From Patescibacteria group bacterium (GTDB taxonomy: Bacteria > Patescibacteriota > Minisyncoccia > Phycocordibacterales > SBAW01): a stretch of 61,654 bases of DNA. This document shows, one piece after another, positions 4,538 through 57,504 of the stretch. Numbering within the stretch: the first letter of the stretch is position 1; each line of letters begins with the position of its first letter. Under the pieces are notes generated by a model that had not been told where the DNA came from, did not search any database, and was given only the letters and a program-made list of their open reading frames with translations. The stretch spans positions 1-61,654 of the forward strand of contig JAIEMM010000007.1 of NCBI GenBank assembly GCA_019752125.1, in the 5' to 3' direction. The position numbers were made by a program, and so were the translations under genes.

Positions 4538-5245
4538 ATGCTACGGTTTTTATGTGGGCTCGCGCTCGCGTTCCTTCTGGGAGCGTGTGTGAGCGAAGGT
4601 AGTGGCGGGTACGTTGCGACCTCTGCTCCGTCGGCTGCCCTCTCGTCTGGCGACATCTGCGACGACGACGAATGCGCCGTCATGGTGGCTGACCGCCCCA
4701 ACGAAGTGCTCTATTTCGGCCGTGGGCCCATGTGGGGCACGCCGCTCTACGCGATCGCCTGGGAACCCGGCTACAGTATCCCGTGGGGTCTCCGGTACTA
4801 CAATCGCTGGAACGGTGTCGTCGTCAACAGAACTGTTTTCCAGACGGTCGCCGTCGACCGCGGGTGGAATCGCTCGGTCTTCGCTGCCAACGTTGCGCCG
4901 CGCGGCGTCCATCCGTTCCGCGGCAATACTGCGGTGCGGCTGCCGAACGGCACTTCGGTCGCGTACAACAACCGTCGCGATCACATCAGGCCGGTCACCG
5001 GTTTGCCGTCTCGGCCTCCGGTGCATGCCGGTGTTGCTCCGCCGTCGCGGCCTCCGGTCCATACTGGTGTGACGCCCCGACCGCCGCAACACACGGCTCC
5101 GCCTGTGCGTACGGCGCCCCCGCCGTCGCGGCCTCCGGTGCAGCACGTTTCCACTCCGCCGCCCCGGGTCTATGCGCCTCCGCCTCGGCCTGCGCCGGCC
5201 CCTCAGCGCAGGAGCTGTGGCGGGCGCGGCGAGCCCAGGTGCTAA
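4538..5245 (+). CDS. GC-rich hypothetical lipoprotein with Pro/Arg-rich repetitive tail; accessory cassette
   Basis: Lipobox-like LLGAC at residue 17; SD GGAG upstream; about 67% GC in sampled line 4621-4680; three 21-nt PSRPPV(H/Q) repeats at 5005, 5041, 5122. Confidence 0.75.
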   Translation: MLRFLCGLALAFLLGACVSEGSGGYVATSAPSAALSSGDICDDDECAVMVADRPNEVLYFGRGPMWGTPLYAIAWEPGYSIPWGLRYYNRWNGVVVNRTVFQTVAVDRGWNRSVFAANVAPRGVHPFRGNTAVRLPNGTSVAYNNRRDHIRPVTGLPSRPPVHAGVAPPSRPPVHTGVTPRPPQHTAPPVRTAPPPSRPPVQHVSTPPPRVYAPPPRPAPAPQRRSCGGRGEPRC

Positions 5246-5266
5246 GCAGCGCCTGAAAACTGTTCC

Positions 5267-5300
5267 AAAACGCGTCCTTGCGGGACGCGTTTTTTCTTTT
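5267..5300 (+). terminator. Intrinsic terminator (possibly bidirectional)
   Basis: AAAACGCGTCC-TTGCG-GGACGCGTTTT plus T-run. Confidence 0.85.
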
Positions 5301-5353
5301 CATAGACTAAACAGGGTTGTTATTGTATAACGAGGTGGAAAGGAGTACCTCGT

Positions 5354-5647
5354 ATGAATCTGAAGGTGTTTGCTGCTCTCGCGCTAGCGATGCTGTCTGT
5401 TGCCGCGTGTGGAATCCCACCGCTTTATACCACTCGCGTGGTTGCGGTTGCTTCTCCGCCGATTGTTGAGGTCGCCGGCGACTACTACTATCCGCTCAAC
5501 TGCTACGAGTTCGGGTGTGCACACCGTGTCGTCGTGGTGGGTGGCCGTCGCGGCTACTATATCGGACCAAGATTCTACCCATATGTTGGACGCGTCTACT
5601 ATCACGGCTACGGCCCATGGCGCCGTCCTGTATGGGTCTACATCTGA
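5354..5647 (+). CDS. Small hypothetical lipoprotein, Tyr/Gly/Arg-rich; accessory cassette
   Basis: Signal peptide ending VAAC; SD GGAAAGGAG; TAGACT-17-TATAAC promoter candidate. Confidence 0.7.
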   Translation: MNLKVFAALALAMLSVAACGIPPLYTTRVVAVASPPIVEVAGDYYYPLNCYEFGCAHRVVVVGGRRGYYIGPRFYPYVGRVYYHGYGPWRRPVWVYI

Positions 5648-5663
5648 AGCTCATTATCTGCCC

Positions 5664-5696
5664 CCGCCCGAGTTTCTCTCGGGCGGTTTTCTTTTT
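5664..5696 (+). terminator. Intrinsic terminator
   Basis: CCGCCCGAG-TTTCT-CTCGGGCGG plus T-rich tail. Confidence 0.85.
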
Positions 5697-52036: not shown

Positions 52037-52810
52037 ATGACAGGATCTCAAATGTGGACCTCGTACTACACGATGGCCCGAAAAGAATTTGTGCGCATGA
52101 TACGTATCTGGTCGCAGACCCTTCTTCCACCTATCGTCACAACAAGTCTCTACTTTGTAGTGTTTGGCTCCTTCATCGGCTCCCAACTTGCTGAAATTAA
52201 TGGTTTCAGCTACATGCAGTTTATCGTGCCAGGCCTCATCATGATGTCGATGATCACCAGCTCATACATGAACACGGTGTCGACCTTCTATTTTGCAAAA
52301 TGGCAGCGCACGCTGGATGAAGTTCTTGTATCACCAACACCAAATTGGATTGTTATCGCAGGCTTTATCAGCGGGGGAATGATGCGTGGACTTATGGTGG
52401 GAGCCTTAGTGCTTCTTGTGTCACTCTTCTTTACGCACCTTGCGATCCACAGCGTGGTTATACTCGTGCTTGCAGGCATCCTTACAACAATGCTGTTCTC
52501 ACTTGCCGGCCTTGTAAACGGCATATTTGCAAAAGGCTTTGACGGTATCTCTATTGTTCCAACATTCGTTCTCACCCCGCTTACATACCTGGGTGGCGTA
52601 TTCTACTCAGTAAACCAATTCTCAGATTTCTGGCGCACGGTATCGCTGTTCAACCCGATTCTCTACATGATCAACGCCTTCCGTTACGGCTTCCTTGGCA
52701 TTAGTGATGTATCGATTGCCTTTAGCTTCTCAATGCTTGTGACAGCCAACGTAGTGCTCCTTGCACTCACGGCGTACTTGTTTAAGAAAGGGTGGGGCTT
52801 CAAGAACTAA
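52037..52810 (+). CDS. ABC-2 type transporter permease (YadH-like)
   Basis: QTLLPP, YMQFIVPGLIMM, PLTYLGGVFYS, NPILYMINAFRYG. Confidence 0.93.
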   Translation: MTGSQMWTSYYTMARKEFVRMIRIWSQTLLPPIVTTSLYFVVFGSFIGSQLAEINGFSYMQFIVPGLIMMSMITSSYMNTVSTFYFAKWQRTLDEVLVSPTPNWIVIAGFISGGMMRGLMVGALVLLVSLFFTHLAIHSVVILVLAGILTTMLFSLAGLVNGIFAKGFDGISIVPTFVLTPLTYLGGVFYSVNQFSDFWRTVSLFNPILYMINAFRYGFLGISDVSIAFSFSMLVTANVVLLALTAYLFKKGWGFKN

Positions 52811-53475
52811 AAAAGTTTTTGTGGCTTCTTGCCTCGCTTCCACTCAGTAAATTTGAGTGTATTGCGTTCAAGAGGGGAGGTCTTGCGTAAGCGTCTACGC
52901 GCGCTGTTTGCAATGATAGAAATGTGGGGCGACTCATCTAACTCTTCAGCAACGAAATCAAGATGCCCTTCCTTCCCCTCTGAGACAACCCATTGCTCTG
53001 GCTTATATCGACGTAGGTCGAATGGTTTTGAAAATGCCTTTAGGGTTTTGACGCCGTCATCTAGATAGTATTCGTGAAAATATGACATCGCGAGCTCTCG
53101 CGGGGTTTTATACACAGCATCGCGCCAACGCAACACAGCATGGTTAGTTTTACTTATTGCACCCCACCCGCCCTTTTCTTGAAAGAGGGTGACAACGTGG
53201 TCGTCGTCGTGCGCAAGCGTCTGCAGATCTAAAAGAAGAGGCTTGTGGCCATGGTAGGCGAGAGCGGCGGCGGCAAACAGCGCGCCTTCCATACAGTGAG
53301 CCACTCTTTCCCTTAGCATCTGACGAGGGGAACGGAGCGTGTCTCCGCGGGGTTCAAAATTTATAGGTAGGCTGTCGAGATAATCCTGTATCTTTTGAGG
53401 AGTATCCAATCGAGAAAAAACCTTGTGCTCCTCCTTCGTTAACAATTTCTTCAGGTTCTTTGTATACACTTTCAT
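52807..53475 (-). CDS. Hypothetical protein, transglutaminase-like (Cys-His)
   Basis: AHCMEGALFAAAAL, DDDHVV, WGAISKTNH. Confidence 0.75.
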   Translation of the reverse strand: MKVYTKNLKKLLTKEEHKVFSRLDTPQKIQDYLDSLPINFEPRGDTLRSPRQMLRERVAHCMEGALFAAAALAYHGHKPLLLDLQTLAHDDDHVVTLFQEKGGWGAISKTNHAVLRWRDAVYKTPRELAMSYFHEYYLDDGVKTLKAFSKPFDLRRYKPEQWVVSEGKEGHLDFVAEELDESPHISIIANSARRRLRKTSPLERNTLKFTEWKRGKKPQKLF

Positions 53476-53534: not shown

Positions 53535-53690
53535 ATGTTATATACCATTGCAATCGTCTTATTGATCTTGTGGCTACTGGGTATCGTCTCGTCGTACACC
53601 ATTGGCGGGTTTATTAACATCCTGCTTGTTGTCGCCGTAATCCTCGTCCTTATCCGCCTTATCCGCGGAGAGAAACCGTTCAATATATAA
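53535..53690 (+). CDS. lmo0937-family small membrane protein (51 aa)
   Basis: Manual translation MLYTIAIVLLILWLLGIVSSYTIGGFINILLVVAVILVLIRLIRGEKPFNI. Confidence 0.85.
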   Translation: MLYTIAIVLLILWLLGIVSSYTIGGFINILLVVAVILVLIRLIRGEKPFNI

Positions 53691-53724
53691 AAAAACCGTT
53701 CACCTCGGGGGAGGGAACGGCTTT
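53691..53724. terminator. Bidirectional terminator
   Basis: CCGTTC...GAACGG stem with A-run before and T-run after, between convergent ORFs. Confidence 0.7.
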
Positions 53725-53738
53725 GAATACTGTCGAGG

Positions 53739-54233
53739 CTACCCACGCTCGTACGAAGAGAGCGCGTACGAAGAGGGCATAAAACGAAACGCGCTACCAG
53801 CCTTGATGGAATCCTGGCACCTGCGAACATCTTCCACCGCCAACCGACGCCCGAGAGGGTCGATCGCCTTGCTGCCGCTGACCTTGTTCCAGATGAGAGC
53901 TTTCGCCTTGTCGGCCTCGTCCCCAAAGAGCTGGATGATGGTGCCCTCCACCTTCATCTTGGAGACGTTCACCTGGTTGTAGCTGCCGTAGAGAGTGACC
54001 TCCTGCGTGGCGGCAAAGAGCTGGATCATCTCCGGATCTGCCGTGCAGAATATGACTTCTTGGGTCGCACCATCCTTCTCGCTGAAGGCGATAATGGCGC
54101 AGTGCCGTAAAAAGTCTTGACTCTCTTCTGGTTCGAAAGGATGTGCGTCGCCACGAGCCTTGAAGAACATGCTCCAGATGTGGGGCAAGTGTTTTACCCC
54201 ATTGTGCACGCTGAGAGGCTTGTACTGAGACAT
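53739..54233 (-). CDS. GC-rich hypothetical protein (164 aa); accessory cassette
   Basis: SD AAGGGAG before ATG 54233; GC-rich codon usage. Confidence 0.75.
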   Translation of the reverse strand: MSQYKPLSVHNGVKHLPHIWSMFFKARGDAHPFEPEESQDFLRHCAIIAFSEKDGATQEVIFCTADPEMIQLFAATQEVTLYGSYNQVNVSKMKVEGTIIQLFGDEADKAKALIWNKVSGSKAIDPLGRRLAVEDVRRCQDSIKAGSAFRFMPSSYALSSYERG

Positions 54234-54310
54234 TTTTCTCCCCTTTTTTGTAAGAACTTCCTGCACAAATTACCATACTCTCTCCGCAAATCAACAGAGA
54301 AGAGAAAAGA

Positions 54311-54336
54311 AAAAGCCACTCTTTCGAGGGGCTTTT
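54311..54336. terminator. Bidirectional terminator
   Basis: AAAAGCC-A-CTC-TTTC-GAG-G-GGCTTTT. Confidence 0.75.
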
Positions 54337-54359
54337 GATTGGGTAGGGGATCTAGTCGC

Positions 54360-54530
54360 TTATGGGTGCGTATGCACCTTCGGATAGCGCCAGTTTATAA
54401 CCATGCCCAACACGTAGATCAAGGCGACCGCCAAGGGTCCCCACCATCCGAACGCGTTGTAGGCCATGATGGCCAACAGCAAAATGAAGCCGTGGGCCAT
54501 CGTCACAGTCCCAATCCTTATGCCACCCAT
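54360..54530 (-). CDS. Small membrane protein (56 aa); accessory cassette
   Basis: Manual translation MGGIRIGTVTMAHGFILLLAIMAYNAFGWWGPLAVALIYVLGMVINWRYPKVHTHP; SD GGGAGAG. Confidence 0.65.
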   Translation of the reverse strand: MGGIRIGTVTMAHGFILLLAIMAYNAFGWWGPLAVALIYVLGMVINWRYPKVHTHP

Positions 54531-54828
54531 TTCGCTCTCCCAAGTTACGTTGAAGAAGTTAGGTAATATACTCTCAACAAGTCCTAAAGAACTATATCAC
54601 GTTTTTTAATTTTAGCAATACACCCAAGGCATATTAGTAGGGAAGGGCTTCCCTGTTTTTTTGGAGAAAAAATTTTCAACAAATTTTTATAGTTTTTTAT
54701 CAAACCAAACGGTAGGGATATCAGAAATAATTCTCAGACAGGTGCAGGGAAGAGAACAGGGACACAAAGTACAAGTCGTGATTCAACGGATCCAAGCCCA
54801 AGGGGATACTGAATTTTAATATAGGTAT

Positions 54829-54856
54829 ACGTCGCACAATATACCTTTTGCGACGC
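54829..54856. other. Candidate chromosome dimer resolution (dif-like) site, 11-6-11
   Basis: ACGTCGCACAA-TATACC-TTTTGCGACGC; arms 9/11 inverted; in gene-free gap at the orientation switch; KOPS polarity. Confidence 0.65.
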
Positions 54857-55002
54857 TTATTAGGCTCAATATAGAGGGGGCCTGGCTTAAGCCCTGTTTG
54901 AGCCGCTGGCTTTCAATTAATCCTTCCCCGCCCTATAGTTACTTTAGATTTGTCTCTTAGAATTATTTTATTTTTATTTAATTTACTCTCCTCTTTTCAC
55001 TT

Positions 55003-55353
55003 ATGAACAGGAACTTGGCTGTCTTGATACTTTTAGTCGCCGGACTGGTTTTGTACGGATTCGCCAATACTCCAACTCAGCCCAATACTCAGACAGCCTC
55101 TGTAGGCTCTTATAACGAGTCCGTTGTCACAAACCCGACCTCTGACACCCGTACGGATACCCAAACAGATGCCGAGGACAGTCCTCGGTGTAATCCAAAC
55201 TATTCTGGTTGTCTAAAATCTGACGCGAGTGATTATGACTGTGCAGAAGGTTCTGGAGATGGTCCGTACTACACGGGCCCGGTTCGTGTCATCGGCTACG
55301 ACCAATACGGACTCGACAGAGACCACGACGGCTGGGCCTGCGAAAAAAATTAA
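55003..55353 (+). CDS. Exported protein with C-terminal Excalibur-like Ca-binding / Cys domain
   Basis: Signal/TM, Thr-rich linker, CNPNYSGC...DYDC...GLDRDHDGWACE. Confidence 0.8.
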   Translation: MNRNLAVLILLVAGLVLYGFANTPTQPNTQTASVGSYNESVVTNPTSDTRTDTQTDAEDSPRCNPNYSGCLKSDASDYDCAEGSGDGPYYTGPVRVIGYDQYGLDRDHDGWACEKN

Positions 55354-55361
55354 CCAGACAA

Positions 55362-55380
55362 GGGGATTGACGACTTCCCT
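55362..55380 (+). promoter_or_regulatory. 19-nt promoter repeat copy 1 (contains -35 TTGACG)
   Basis: GGGGATTGACGACTTCCCT identical to 55548-55566; -10 TAATTT 16 nt after -35. Confidence 0.75.
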
Positions 55381-55423
55381 GTTCGTGGTAATTTGATTCT
55401 AGTAATTAACTGAGGAGGGTTCT

Positions 55424-55504
55424 GTGGGTCCTGACCATCTTTTGATTTGTGGGGCGGTAGTCGTCGCAATCCTTATCATAATCGCTCGTGCCCGTGAGTC
55501 TTAG
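55424..55504 (+). CDS. 26-aa hydrophobic peptide; accessory cassette
   Basis: SD GAGGAGG; GTG start; MGPDHLLICGAVVVAILIIIARARES; terminator 55507-55534. Confidence 0.55.
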   Translation: MGPDHLLICGAVVVAILIIIARARES

Positions 55505-55547
55505 CCGGCCGCCTTCTCCAGGCGGTCTTTTTTTATGTGGCCATGCG

Positions 55548-55566
55548 GGGGATTGACGACTTCCCT
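55548..55566 (+). promoter_or_regulatory. 19-nt promoter repeat copy 2
   Basis: Identical to 55362-55380; -10 TATTGT 16 nt after -35. Confidence 0.75.
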
Positions 55567-55613
55567 TTCTGTAGTATTGTGTTTTGGCACCATGTAACTG
55601 GAGGGCAAGACAA

Positions 55614-56015
55614 ATGAGCACGTTCAAGAATATCGAAGACATCGTGAAGGCGGATTTCAAGAAGGGTCTGAAGCTTCTGGACCGGGTCATGCCGGGCTGG
55701 CGCGCCAAGGTCAAGAAGCCCGTCAGCATCAGCGACGCCGCATCCTGCCCCATCGCCCAGATCACGGGCTCGAACTTCTTCCACGCCGACCTGGGGAAGT
55801 TCGGCTTCGACCCCGACACCGTCGCCCAGTTCAAGGACGTCTCGCTGAAAGGTTCCGACAGGGTTGCCCGCCAAGAGTGGGCGTCCCAGTTCGGCTTCTC
55901 GACCGGTGAACGGCACCAGAAGAACGAAAGAGGCCACTGGTGCCTGAGCACGCTGGGCTACGCGACGGAGATGTTCAACAAACTCTGGAACACGGAACTC
56001 GGCTTCACCGCCTAG
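55614..56015 (+). CDS. GC-rich hypothetical protein (133 aa), phage-like; accessory cassette
   Basis: SD GGAGG; about 63% GC in sampled line 55741-55800; LLDRVMPGW...C..AQ..G motif. Confidence 0.75.
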   Translation: MSTFKNIEDIVKADFKKGLKLLDRVMPGWRAKVKKPVSISDAASCPIAQITGSNFFHADLGKFGFDPDTVAQFKDVSLKGSDRVARQEWASQFGFSTGERHQKNERGHWCLSTLGYATEMFNKLWNTELGFTA

Positions 56016-56034
56016 ATCGCGTCCCAACAGCCAC

Positions 56035-56067
56035 AAAGGCTTCTCTTTCGAGAAGCCTTTTTCTTTT
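56035..56067. terminator. Bidirectional terminator
   Basis: AAAGGCTTCTC-TTTC-GAGAAGCCTTT. Confidence 0.85.
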
Positions 56068-56094
56068 ATAAAAACAGGGAACTGACTCCCCTAT

Positions 56095-56388
56095 CTACCA
56101 AAAAAGATTTCCGGAGGAATAGAATAAAGATATGATGACATACGGCGCGACTATCACCACACTCTGTAGAGCACTCAAGCTCTTTCTTTTCAAACAAAGC
56201 CAAACTAGGCCTGCAGAAATACCGCAGATCGCTATCAATACAAGATCTATTAAACCGATGACCATATACGAAGTGCTCATGGCACTGTACGCAAGGGCAA
56301 GAACAGCACCTGGTGCAAGTATGTACACTATATAAACCACAACAATACTGTGGACGGCGGCAAGAAAGGTTAAAATCCATTTAGACAT
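56095..56388 (-). CDS. Small 3-TM membrane protein (97 aa)
   Basis: MSKWILTFLAAV...; TATAAT 6 nt before ATG. Confidence 0.65.
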   Translation of the reverse strand: MSKWILTFLAAVHSIVVVYIVYILAPGAVLALAYSAMSTSYMVIGLIDLVLIAICGISAGLVWLCLKRKSLSALQSVVIVAPYVIISLFYSSGNLFW

Positions 56389-56460
56389 AGGATGATTATA
56401 AGGCACTAGTGTAAAAATCTCAGCTATTGACGAGATTAGAATATATGTTAGTGTGCGGCG

Positions 56461-56582
56461 AGTCCTGAGGTGAATCTGCTGCCCCAAACAGCCGAGACTA
56501 ATCTGACCTGTTCCTTTCCATTTCCACGTTCCTGGAGCAAGTTGGTGTCCCTTAGTCTTCACCTCAGGACAACTTCTTTTTT
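56461..56582 (+). ncRNA. Candidate structured small RNA of about 120 nt
   Basis: TTGACG-16-TAGTGT promoter (56427-56454); 13-bp closing stem 56462-56474/56558-56570; inner stem AGACTAA/TTAGTCT; 3' U-tract. Confidence 0.55.
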
Positions 56583-56640
56583 GTGATATCGTAGGCATGC
56601 ACCAAGAGTATCCTTAAGAGATACAAACGGAGGGCTGGAG

Positions 56641-56793
56641 ATGTCCAATTCATCAGAGGGTTCCAACAACCGCTATTTCCTGCACGGTTCCAGTTCGCAG
56701 GATTTGTGGCTGAAGAGGAGCGAGTCGTGGCTGTTCAGTCTGGCCGTGCTCGGTATCACCGCTCTGGTCTCGCTGATCATCCATCAGCTTTAG
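56641..56793 (+). CDS. 50-aa peptide with C-terminal TM; accessory cassette
   Basis: SD GGAGG; manual translation MSNSSEGSNNRYFLHGSSSQDLWLKRSESWLFSLAVLGITALVSLIIHQL; terminator 56792-56848. Confidence 0.6.
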   Translation: MSNSSEGSNNRYFLHGSSSQDLWLKRSESWLFSLAVLGITALVSLIIHQL

Positions 56794-56896
56794 ACCGCCC
56801 AGGTTTTCAATACAAAAGCCGCCCCTCATCAGGGCGGTCTTTCTTTTTATGTCTGTCCCAGGTAGTGTATTCAAAGTCTGTTCCCTGGGGGGTGTC

Positions 56897-57046
56897 ATGG
56901 TTCGATTTGCAGCACTCTGCCTATTTCTGCTGCTACTCAACTTCAACTTCTACTATGTTGTGAGCCAGGCCGGAGTGAGGAGAAACGCCACCGTCACCGG
57001 CAATTTTCCAGAGATTCTCGCGGCTATCATCGTGATCCTTTACTAG
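56897..57046 (+). CDS. 49-aa two-TM peptide; accessory cassette
   Basis: G-rich SD; MVRFAALCLFLLLLNF...EILAAIIVILY; terminator CTGCCA/TGGCAG at 57047-57068. Confidence 0.55.
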   Translation: MVRFAALCLFLLLLNFNFYYVVSQAGVRRNATVTGNFPEILAAIIVILY

Positions 57047-57066
57047 CTGCCATTTTTGGCAGTTTT

Positions 57067-57504
57067 TTATTTTCCAGCAGTGGCTAGAAGTTTGGCGTTT
57101 TGAGTTTTACCCCAGCACGGCTTGGACGAGTTCCAAGGAGTAGTTCCTTCTTTTTCATATAAGTAACGAGCGTAGGCCATATTTCCTTCAAGGGTATATA
57201 TGTCGTACCCAAGCTTCTTTGATGTGGCTAGGTGAAAGTCTTCGTTGACCTGCATTACACCGACGTCGCGGTTATTCTGCTTGCCACGATATATCTCCCC
57301 TTCTTTGTCGAATTGGCGGAAGTGAGATTCGCACTTAGAAATATCCACCATAACGGGGATATCGTAGAAGTACGCTTCTACCTGGTCGCGGATGGTCTGT
57401 GCCTGCGGAGCAATCCCCAAAGTCGGTACAGAAGGGGTTGTCGAGGCAGGGGTGGCACCTAGCGCTGATGAGAGCGCCAGAGCGAGGCCAAGAGCATAAG
57501 GCAT
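57067..57504 (-). CDS. Exported lysozyme-like / SLT transglycosylase-fold protein
   Basis: Signal peptide; ISKCES (catalytic Glu), DVGVMQVN, NMAYARYLY..EG..PW...CW. Confidence 0.8.
   Translation of the reverse strand: MPYALGLALALSSALGATPASTTPSVPTLGIAPQAQTIRDQVEAYFYDIPVMVDISKCESHFRQFDKEGEIYRGKQNNRDVGVMQVNEDFHLATSKKLGYDIYTLEGNMAYARYLYEKEGTTPWNSSKPCWGKTQNAKLLATAGK

Follow-up and report, generated by a model that had tools for sequence, protein, structure and literature searches.

Stand-alone mini-genes flank a dif-like site in a lineage-specific islet of a Candidatus Adlerbacteria-like genome

Phage morons, a concept of Juhala and Hendrix, are transcribed independently from their own promoter to their own terminator, deviate in GC content, lie between conserved genes, and are present in some relatives and absent from others (PMC3594210). 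Many encode small membrane proteins, among them gp15 of HK97, a small inner-membrane exclusion protein (PMC3594210). Foreign DNA also lies beside the chromosomal dif site in integrative mobile elements exploiting Xer (IMEX; CTXphi, TLC, GGI, and Legionella LME-1), which carry a copy or mimic of the host site and are flanked by dif and a second dif-like site, with the joint at the crossover (PMC5357621, PMC9765430). In Acinetobacter, small gene modules are tied to Xer sites, each bounded by a pair of pdif sites (PMC12907356). Here, we describe a locus that invites comparison with these systems: a 3.6-kb islet of nine small open reading frames (ORFs) around a dif-like palindrome, on a 61,654-nt stretch of DNA from a Patescibacteria group bacterium (GenBank assembly GCA_019752125.1, contig JAIEMM010000007.1, positions 1 to 61,654), referred to below as the window.

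The units of the islet are like phage morons in apparent architecture, deviant GC, presence or absence among relatives, and small membrane products; they differ in lying on a cellular chromosome of the Candidate Phyla Radiation (CPR) rather than in a prophage, in standing nine in a row by a dif-like site, and in having no phage relatives. Terminators in the islet are enriched and well folded, units are present or absent among otherwise collinear relatives and have a deviant GC content at third codon positions (GC3), and promoter-like boxes precede most units without being enriched. The likeness to IMEX consists of apparently foreign DNA beside the probable dif and of phage contigs that carry a copy of the site; the islet, however, has one site, its joints lie elsewhere, and no element backbone is present. 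Similarly, the site recalls those of single-recombinase systems (XerS/difSL, XerH/difH, XerL/dif, and archaeal XerA/dif) in its near-palindromic arms, short asymmetric centre, apparent position at the terminus, and a recombinase gene adjacent to it in sister lineages (PMC5357621), whereas its sequence is unrelated to published dif sites and no xer gene adjoins it in the window's own lineage. Unlike in the pdif modules (PMC12907356), no islet unit is bounded by a copy of the site. Our preferred reading, to which we assign a probability of roughly 0.6, is that the locus is a lineage-specific islet of stand-alone, moron-like accessory mini-genes around a probable dif at the replication terminus, and that Xer capture is not required to explain it.

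A 3.6-kb stretch of self-contained mini-genes flanks the dif-like site on both sides. An earlier description of this DNA, made from its letters alone (the sequence-only reading), had proposed nine small ORFs within 3.5 kb, and all nine are present (51, 164, 56, 116, 26, 133, 97, 50, and 49 aa, from left to right). Between positions 52500 and 58500, we found 25 terminator-like sites, compared with 7.0 ± 2.6 in shuffled sequences. A stricter scan returned 20 sites in the whole window, five of them in 55.5–57.1 kb, and the density of terminator-like hairpins in the islet is approximately 10-fold that of the rest of the window. Further islet hairpins with T-runs are located at 53.70, 54.32, 54.65, and 56.08 kb (z −3.3 to −6.0). 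Convincing terminators end eight of the nine units, the 116-aa unit having a weak hairpin only (z −1.1), so that the description of nearly every unit as terminator-insulated holds. Most units also point away from the site, as had been described: the two nearest on its left are on the minus strand and five of the six on its right are on the plus strand. The proposed promoter–Shine–Dalgarno–ORF–terminator layout stood in part. A promoter-like box of the form TTGAnn-16/17-TAnnnT precedes most units, and a Shine–Dalgarno (SD) sequence is present in six of the nine ORFs; the 51- and 116-aa ORFs lack one, and the 97-aa ORF looks leaderless. The six short hydrophobic membrane peptides of the sequence-only reading were recovered as transmembrane (TM)-like segments in the 51-, 56-, 26-, 97-, 50-, and 49-aa products, and the 116-aa product has an N-terminal anchor or signal.

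Base composition sets the islet ORFs apart. Their GC3 ranges from 0.44 to 0.88, compared with 0.50–0.57 in core genes, and is highest in the 133-aa (0.88), 56-aa (0.77), 50-aa (0.75), and 164-aa (0.73) ORFs. Such high and heterogeneous values fit foreign or cassette-type genes of several origins. Native codon usage fits the islet ORFs poorly, a test that is weak for short hydrophobic or GC-rich ORFs and by which one core membrane protein scores equally low. Some regulatory parts recur within the islet. Terminators at 55512 and 56824 (family D2, 75% identity) and at 54311 and 56035 (family D3, 77% identity) are related, and a 37-nt promoter module is present in two copies, at 55362 and 55548, that bracket the 26-aa unit (family D1; 19 nt identical, 81% over 37 nt).

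The islet lies between a 222-aa gene (52807–53475, minus strand) and a 145-aa gene (57067–57504, minus strand). Homologues of the 222-aa protein were found at 160 loci, and its closest relatives belong to Candidatus Adlerbacteria and other Paceibacteria metagenome-assembled genomes; identity is 91% in locus L001 (MEXB01000002) and 83% in L002, by which the window genome is Candidatus Adlerbacteria-like. A gap of 140–650 bp separates the 145-aa gene from the 222-aa gene in 14 related species, whereas it measures 3.6 kb in the window and as much as 5.6 kb in L001; the islet is thus lineage-specific. The short gap holds one DoxX-family gene in at least seven of the 14 species, with the site just before the 222-aa gene. 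In a second, Kaiserbacteria-like configuration, a Band_7 gene lies there, in some cases together with a xer gene. The islet ORFs of the window were found in none of the 14 short-gap relatives and in none of the Kaiserbacteria-like relatives; they are common only to L001, L002, and L162.

Five genes (51, 116, 133, 97, and 50 aa) are shared between the window and L001, and the islet is therefore older than the split of the two. Outside the islet, the flanks are collinear over the comparable 13.6 kb. Within it, three segments have been swapped, inserted, or deleted relative to L001. Gene content thus varies across relatives, and the accumulation zone that had been suggested is supported as real, with turnover around a conserved site. 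In place of 53690–54683, which encodes the 164- and 56-aa products, L001 has a 2.8-kb segment that holds a 165-aa ORF and encodes a SIR2_2 protein. In place of the 26-aa unit, it has approximately 610 nt with a small RNA (sRNA)-like unit and an approximately 95-aa TM ORF behind a homologous promoter. The 49-aa unit, of approximately 215 nt, is an indel found in the window only. The corresponding breakpoints (53690, 54683, 55383/55573, and 56850) follow stops or terminators and are at least 100 nt from the site. Homology with L001 ends exactly past the stop codon of the 51-aa ORF, after which each genome has its own terminator, and resumes just past a terminator hairpin and T-run at 54683, where the hairpins differ between the genomes. 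Likewise, the 49-aa unit follows immediately on the T-tract of the terminator before it and has a terminator of its own.

Selection was measured with L001 as the sole really close relative. The ratio of nonsynonymous to synonymous substitution rates (dN/dS) was 0.11 for the 51-aa, 0.27 for the 116-aa, 0.40 for the 133-aa, 0.28 for the 97-aa, and 0.69 for the 50-aa ORF, and 0.02–0.18 for flanking core genes. These values indicate that the shared ORFs are coding, yet evolve several-fold faster than the core. Purifying selection is thus clear for four of the five shared ORFs and weak for the 50-aa ORF. Overall, five of the nine ORFs are supported as genes by dN/dS of 0.11–0.40, by a Pfam family, or by a confident fold; the 56-, 26-, 50-, and 49-aa ORFs are putative genes.

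The dif-like site spans 28 nt (54829–54856). Its 24-nt core, GTCGCACAATATACCTTTTGCGAC, occupies 54831–54854 and consists of two inverted palindromic arms around a short asymmetric AT-rich centre (ACGTCGCAcAA / TATACC / TTtTGCGACGc). A single copy of the core GTCGCACAATATAYCTTTTGCGAC is present at each of 22 distinct chromosomal loci whose 222-aa proteins are 45–60% identical to that of the window; it is exact or has one mismatch in 18 of these and up to three mismatches in the rest, with Y at one central position. In relatives, the site is mostly located 35–80 nt upstream of the 222-aa gene. Its orientation relative to that gene is flipped in L016, L033, L084, L094, and L095. In L016, changes are symmetric in both arms (TTCGCA..TGCGAA), and the outer positions of phage and chromosomal copies covary likewise. 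The flipped orientation and the symmetric arm changes fit a DNA site for a dimeric protein, not a strand-specific RNA element. The window and L001 both retain an intact site, the same over a stretch of 50 nt, though it is displaced by 1.35 and 3.1 kb, respectively, from the 222-aa gene; its retention despite this displacement implies a function independent of that gene. The palindromic core is almost certainly functional. It is very probably a dif-type recombination site that is also used by mobile elements, and probably the chromosomal dif of a single Xer-type recombinase at the replication terminus. In keeping with a terminus position, coding sequence converges on the site, amounting to 44.4 kb on the plus strand and 6.0 kb on the minus strand left of it, and to 0.35 kb and 4.9 kb, respectively, right of it; most relatives are alike. 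The polarity of GGGNAGGG, the E. coli consensus of the FtsK-orienting polar sequences (KOPS), flips at the site as well: on the left, the ratio is 12:0 for the window, and 16 relatives together give 36:3 on the left and 1:18 on the right, which exceeds the general G-run bias of 2.5:1.

Two other identities for the palindrome were tried and rejected. An RNA hairpin or terminator is inconsistent with its fold (z −1.6), the lack of a U-tail, and the flipped orientation in five lineages; a classical XerCD dif is inconsistent with the absence of any match to E. coli dif at up to three mismatches. The noncoding block around the site (54665–55002) has no support as a structured RNA (z −1.0 and −1.8), and a 14-nt inverted repeat flanking the site (54725/54955) is at chance level by rough estimate. 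The segment 54829–54969, comprising the site and approximately 113 nt to its right, is approximately 96% identical between the window and L001, compared with 84% for the DNA left of the site and approximately 82% for the 116-aa gene; it could serve the site as accessory DNA, act as promoter or leader for the 116-aa gene, or have been exchanged recently.

A candidate recombinase is encoded beside the site in sister lineages. In L007, L015, L022, and L023, a Xer-type recombinase gene (Phage_integrase and Phage_int_SAM_1 domains) lies divergently beside the 222-aa gene (modules at L015:8887-9960, L007:8879-9960, L022:8741-9950, and L023:8698-9900), and the variant palindromes AACTGAGTATAATATCTCTAATACTCAGTT, AGTGAGTATAATCACTCTAACACTCACT, and TTCGCACAATATATGTAAARCGAA, which differ in their arms and are similar in their centre, lie between the two genes. 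Having the recombinase gene next to its site is described as characteristic of XerS/difSL and XerH/difH, both of them single-recombinase systems (PMC5357621), and the gene-plus-site module of these four loci resembles xerS/difSL.

The site is also carried by phages. An exact-pattern scan found the 24-nt core in 12 IMG/VR contigs (L169-L180; for example L169:11621-11642, L178:9087-9108, and L170:3339-3360), of which L177 duplicates part of L169; the number expected by chance is, by rough estimate, well below one. When the large ORFs of four contigs were scanned against PHROGs, each proved to carry hallmark phage genes: those for a large terminase and a tail-fibre-like protein in L169, for a terminase and a portal protein in L178, for a terminase-like protein and a DNA methyltransferase in L176, and for a ribonucleotide reductase in L173. 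The site lies 0.6–1.5 kb from the terminase gene in L169/L177, L178, and L180. In L170, a tyrosine integrase gene is located 480 nt from the site; the other 11 contigs have no integrase gene beside it within the fetched stretch. The neighbours of the chromosomal site occur in none of the 12 contigs, and neither do the islet genes. These contigs are candidates for Xer-exploiting or dif-targeting phages of CPR bacteria.

The sequence-only reading had called the zone Xer-assisted. In an IMEX-like process of this kind, circles or phages that bear the site would integrate at dif through the host Xer recombinase, after which the second site and the element backbone would decay and the cargo remain. 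In its fullest form, the palindrome would be an undescribed dif of a single-recombinase Xer system in Paceibacteria, tailed phages of these bacteria would integrate at or resolve on it through the host recombinase (through its own integrase in L170), and the islet would be the cargo of repeated captures. The probable authenticity of the dif and the 12 phage contigs with the identical core favour such a history, as do insertions on both sides of the site and the fact that nowhere else in the window do such units cluster as densely. There is also a precedent, in that the dif mimic carried by the mobile element LME-1 likewise revealed the dif/XerL system of Legionella (PMC9765430). A trace of duplication exists in one relative: at L017:9850-9970 (the same as L087), the palindromes GTCGCACAATATACATTTTCCGAC and a 23-nt variant, GTCGCACAATGGCTCTTTGCGAC, lie approximately 55 nt apart with a hairpin between them. 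Apart from this nearby variant, however, scans with position weight matrices (PWMs) found no second full or half site at the same spacing in the window or in the islet of any relative, and the full- and half-site scan of the unit junctions, which had been named as a place to look for degenerate Xer sites, found none. In addition, the breakpoints relative to L001 coincide with terminators rather than with the site, the islet proteins have no relatives in viral contigs or PHROGs (or in PADLOC), none of the loci has remnants of phage genes beside the chromosomal site, and units of similar type occur 50 kb away. Because the site is probably dif and phages carry it, capture as the source of the islet is a live minority reading, but it lacks its defining signature of a second site and joints at the crossover and appears unlikely, both as a process in general and in its fullest form.

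Less likely still is that a single larger island or prophage was once inserted between the two flanking genes (145 and 222 aa) and has decayed, leaving the small ORFs as surviving morons or fragments. The units do show moron-like architecture as defined for phages, with promoter-like boxes, terminators, and deviant GC (PMC3594210), and the same islet of L001 and L002 contains a defence-like SIR2_2 gene. Against a single origin, we found no phage, integrase, or transposase remnants, the spread of GC3 from 0.44 to 0.88 argues for several sources, and the independent indels and swaps of single units since the split from L001 argue for piecemeal change. Equally improbable in our estimate is that the islet is mostly nongenic spacer in which the 26-, 49-, 50-, and 56-aa ORFs are chance frames in leaders, sRNAs, and terminators of neighbouring genes. 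Such a view gains from the absence of homologues of the 56-aa ORF, from none having been seen for the 26- and 49-aa ORFs, at which no search was aimed, and from the 50-aa ORF, where a spurious-like codon score accompanies the dN/dS of 0.69 and the upstream leader is more conserved than the ORF itself. It is opposed by an SD at the right distance in all four, by GC3 of 0.64–0.77 in the 56-, 50-, and 49-aa ORFs, and by a TM-length hydrophobic segment and dedicated terminator in each of the four. An integron, finally, to which the zone had been likened and which it resembles as a string of small units at a single place on the chromosome, mostly orphans, of one gene each and of mixed origin, is excluded on all three defining features (IntI with attI, attC sites, and promoterless cassettes in one orientation): there is no integrase in or beside the islet and no Phage_integrase domain in any islet ORF by Pfam, a repeat search returned only the related terminator hairpins and the one promoter module with nothing at every junction (agreeing, together with the PWM scans, with the earlier remark that no attC or repeated dif is visible in the window), and the units have their own promoter-like boxes and occur in both orientations.

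For the lineage-specific islet of moron-like mini-genes that we prefer, the comparisons show the following course of events. The ancestral order is the 145-aa gene, usually a DoxX gene, the site, and the 222-aa gene, all within 140–650 bp. The clade of the window, L001, and L002 has gained 3.6–5.6 kb between the flanking genes, and since the split of the window and L001, units have been replaced, inserted, or deleted singly at joints just past stops or terminators. The spacer at the terminus and dif may be permissive as a slot, given that converging core transcription units terminate in it. Units scattered genome-wide by a process operating in Adlerbacteria might pile up in this slot without polar damage, and Xer recombination at the site, or site-carrying phages, may supply DNA. 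Two more stand-alone orphan units, flanked by a flavodoxin-like gene and ychF, are located at 4538–5686, approximately 50 kb from the site. They encode 235-aa and 97-aa lipoprotein-like ORFs (GC 0.68 and 0.57, no Pfam family), each with an SD and a strong terminator, and imply that the process is not specific to dif.

Several observations weigh against this interpretation. Sigma-70-like promoter matches are not enriched (six, compared with 5.7 expected), and four of the nine ORFs (56, 26, 50, and 49 aa) are identified by open frame, SD, hydrophobicity, and high GC3 alone. The L001-type islet is identical in three assemblies, which indicates that turnover is slow, occurring between species and not between strains. 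The sequencing runs examined, which included no RNA, were shallow DNA assemblies of drinking-water and groundwater origin, and no structural variants or joints were seen in them. No xer gene was found in the 61.6-kb window by tblastn with two Xer-like recombinases. The assignment of the site as dif derives from sequence context within loci rather than from a whole genome, and because the site lies in most relatives in a short divergent spacer upstream of the 222-aa gene, it could, though less probably, serve as an operator. Finally, the polarity of GGGNAGGG is confounded by gene-strand bias (GGGG 153, CCCC 61). Three window copies of GGGNAGGG lie within islet terminator hairpins (53708, 54341, and 54640).

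Read from left to right, the islet begins with the 51-aa membrane peptide (53535–53690, plus strand), a member of the DUF5670/lmo0937 family (Pfam PF18919, E=1e-14; NCBIfam NF033488, E=1e-15) that is 84–88% identical at the amino acid level in L001 and L002. A two-way terminator with A- and T-runs (53694–53724; −16.5 kcal/mol and z −3.3 on the plus strand, −19.0 kcal/mol and z −6.0 on the minus strand) is common to this unit and the next, the 164-aa ORF (53739–54233, minus strand), which is present in the window and not in L001. The 164-aa protein has no close relative and 41 distant homologues among 1.84 billion representatives. A single-sequence AlphaFold2 prediction was uninformative (predicted local distance difference test score, pLDDT, 50), and we used the model built with the alignment of distant homologues (pLDDT 91). 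Foldseek matched this model to split-barrel proteins that bind FMN, FAD, or haem (E approximately 1e-4, TM-score 0.54–0.68). The predicted product is a soluble protein with a split beta-barrel fold (PNPOx/flavin- or haem-binding-like), cofactor-binding-like and not a toxin peptide. The suggestion that the peptides are type I toxin-like found no backing: in addition to this largest unit being soluble, no islet product matches a toxin family in Pfam, NCBIfam, or PADLOC, and there is no significant Rfam match.

The 56-aa ORF (54360–54530, minus strand; SD GGGAGAG, GC3 0.77) encodes two hydrophobic segments and occurs in the window only. No homologue of it was found, its codon score is ambiguous, and it is missing from the protein collection, which fits its having escaped gene calling. 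Its terminator (54305–54336, minus strand; −12.2 kcal/mol, z −4.1) is kin to the one at 56035–56060. An orphan terminator on the plus strand (54636–54664) marks where the segment replaced in L001 breaks off on its right; at this joint, L001 has another hairpin. The terminator has a weak promoter-like box approximately 80 nt upstream. The region spanning both (54570–54664, plus strand) has an ordinary fold (z 0.2), runs divergently from the 56-aa unit with hardly any overlap with the predicted 5′ end of its mRNA, and is the sole hint of a type I antitoxin-like RNA.

Right of the site, the 116-aa ORF (55003–55353, plus strand) is predicted to encode a secreted or anchored protein with an N-terminal TM or signal segment and a Cys-rich C terminus. 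It is 72–73% identical at the amino acid level in L001 and is weakly Excalibur-like (Pfam PF05901, E=1e-3, under the cutoff). The first copy of the promoter module (55362–55398, plus strand; TTGACG-16-TAATTT) precedes the 26-aa ORF, and its L001 homologue serves a different ORF. The 26-aa hydrophobic ORF (55424–55504, plus strand) has a GTG start and the strong SD GAGGAGGG, occurs in the window only, and is followed by a strong terminator (55507–55534, plus strand) that is kin to the one at 56818–56851. The second module copy (55548–55584, plus strand; TTGACG-16-TATTGT) precedes the ORF of a soluble 133-aa orphan protein (55614–56015, plus strand; GC3 0.88), which is approximately 60% identical at the amino acid level in L001 and otherwise has one homologue among 5.8 billion proteins; the contig of that homologue is short and likewise shows the 133–97–50 order. 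Back-to-back terminators (56035–56091), with an 11-bp stem on the plus strand at 56035–56060 and a stem on the minus strand at 56091–56076, separate this unit from the convergent 97-aa unit. The latter (56095–56388, minus strand) encodes a polytopic membrane protein with TM segments and 56% amino acid identity in L001; with TATAAT 7 nt before its ATG, it is probably leaderless.

Upstream of the 50-aa ORF, a conserved promoter is followed by a long clamped hairpin and a U-tract (56427–56582, plus strand; fold z −3.4). Structured counterparts are present in L001 (4640-4950, minus strand; z −4.8) and L162 (725-1020; z −2.65). Within 56427–56640, the clamp sequence differs between the window and L001/L162 while pairing is kept and the flanks are conserved, and a near-invariant 60-nt stretch ahead of the SD of the 50-aa ORF is better conserved in the three genomes than the ORF. 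The element at 56427–56582 looks like a structured leader or attenuator, or an sRNA. The 50-aa ORF itself (56641–56793, plus strand) has a good SD, a C-terminal TM segment, and GC3 of 0.75, is 51–55% identical at the amino acid level in L001, and appears weakly constrained. It is followed by a two-way terminator (56818–56838), directly behind whose T-tract the 49-aa unit (56850–57066), missing in L001, is inserted. The 49-aa hydrophobic ORF (56897–57046, plus strand) has the SD GGGGGG, and terminator scans place its terminator at 57045–57064 on the plus strand.

Two elements of the related islets deserve mention. A SIR2_2-domain protein is encoded at L001:7730-8968 on the minus strand, and its N terminus at L002:3-257 on the minus strand (Pfam E 8e-7, with weak PADLOC SIR2 matches). 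The segment L001:6130-6330 (minus strand), which separates the 116-aa homologue from the next unit, comprises a promoter-like box, approximately 150 nt without a credible ORF, and a strong terminator (CCGGCCGCC...GGCGGCC T-run); this is a possible sRNA unit. As for the flanking genes, the 222-aa protein has no Pfam family, and the start of its gene is the normal neighbour of the site in relatives. The 145-aa gene, which is kept in the 14 relatives, encodes lytic-transglycosylase-like motifs, and its NCBIfam match is limited to a weak IagB-like one. No identical protein records were found for either. The window has no Rfam match at the gathering score and no tRNA, and matches at E up to 1 are at chance level.

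The islet products are mostly small membrane or secreted proteins, accompanied by the split-barrel cofactor-binding-like protein and a soluble orphan, to which relatives add the SIR2-like protein. They may provide fast-evolving accessory functions of the envelope or niche, and their genes are ordinary candidates for such functions; together with the SIR2-like protein, they look like typical accessory cargo for envelope, niche, or defence. CPR/Patescibacteria genomes are tiny and densely packed, and their gene gain is poorly known. The locus offers a concrete, datable case, in which a spacer of 140–650 bp in 14 species has grown into a 3.6- to 5.6-kb stack of self-contained orphan genes in one lineage, with units swapped since the split from the nearest relative. 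It also provides a strong dif candidate for the group, with a site that phage contigs share; full-text literature searching on Xer, dif, and IMEX found no paper on a dif site in CPR bacteria. If Xer-assisted capture, unlikely as it appears, were to prove true, the islet would represent an integrase-free platform for gene acquisition at the terminus of ultra-small genomes.

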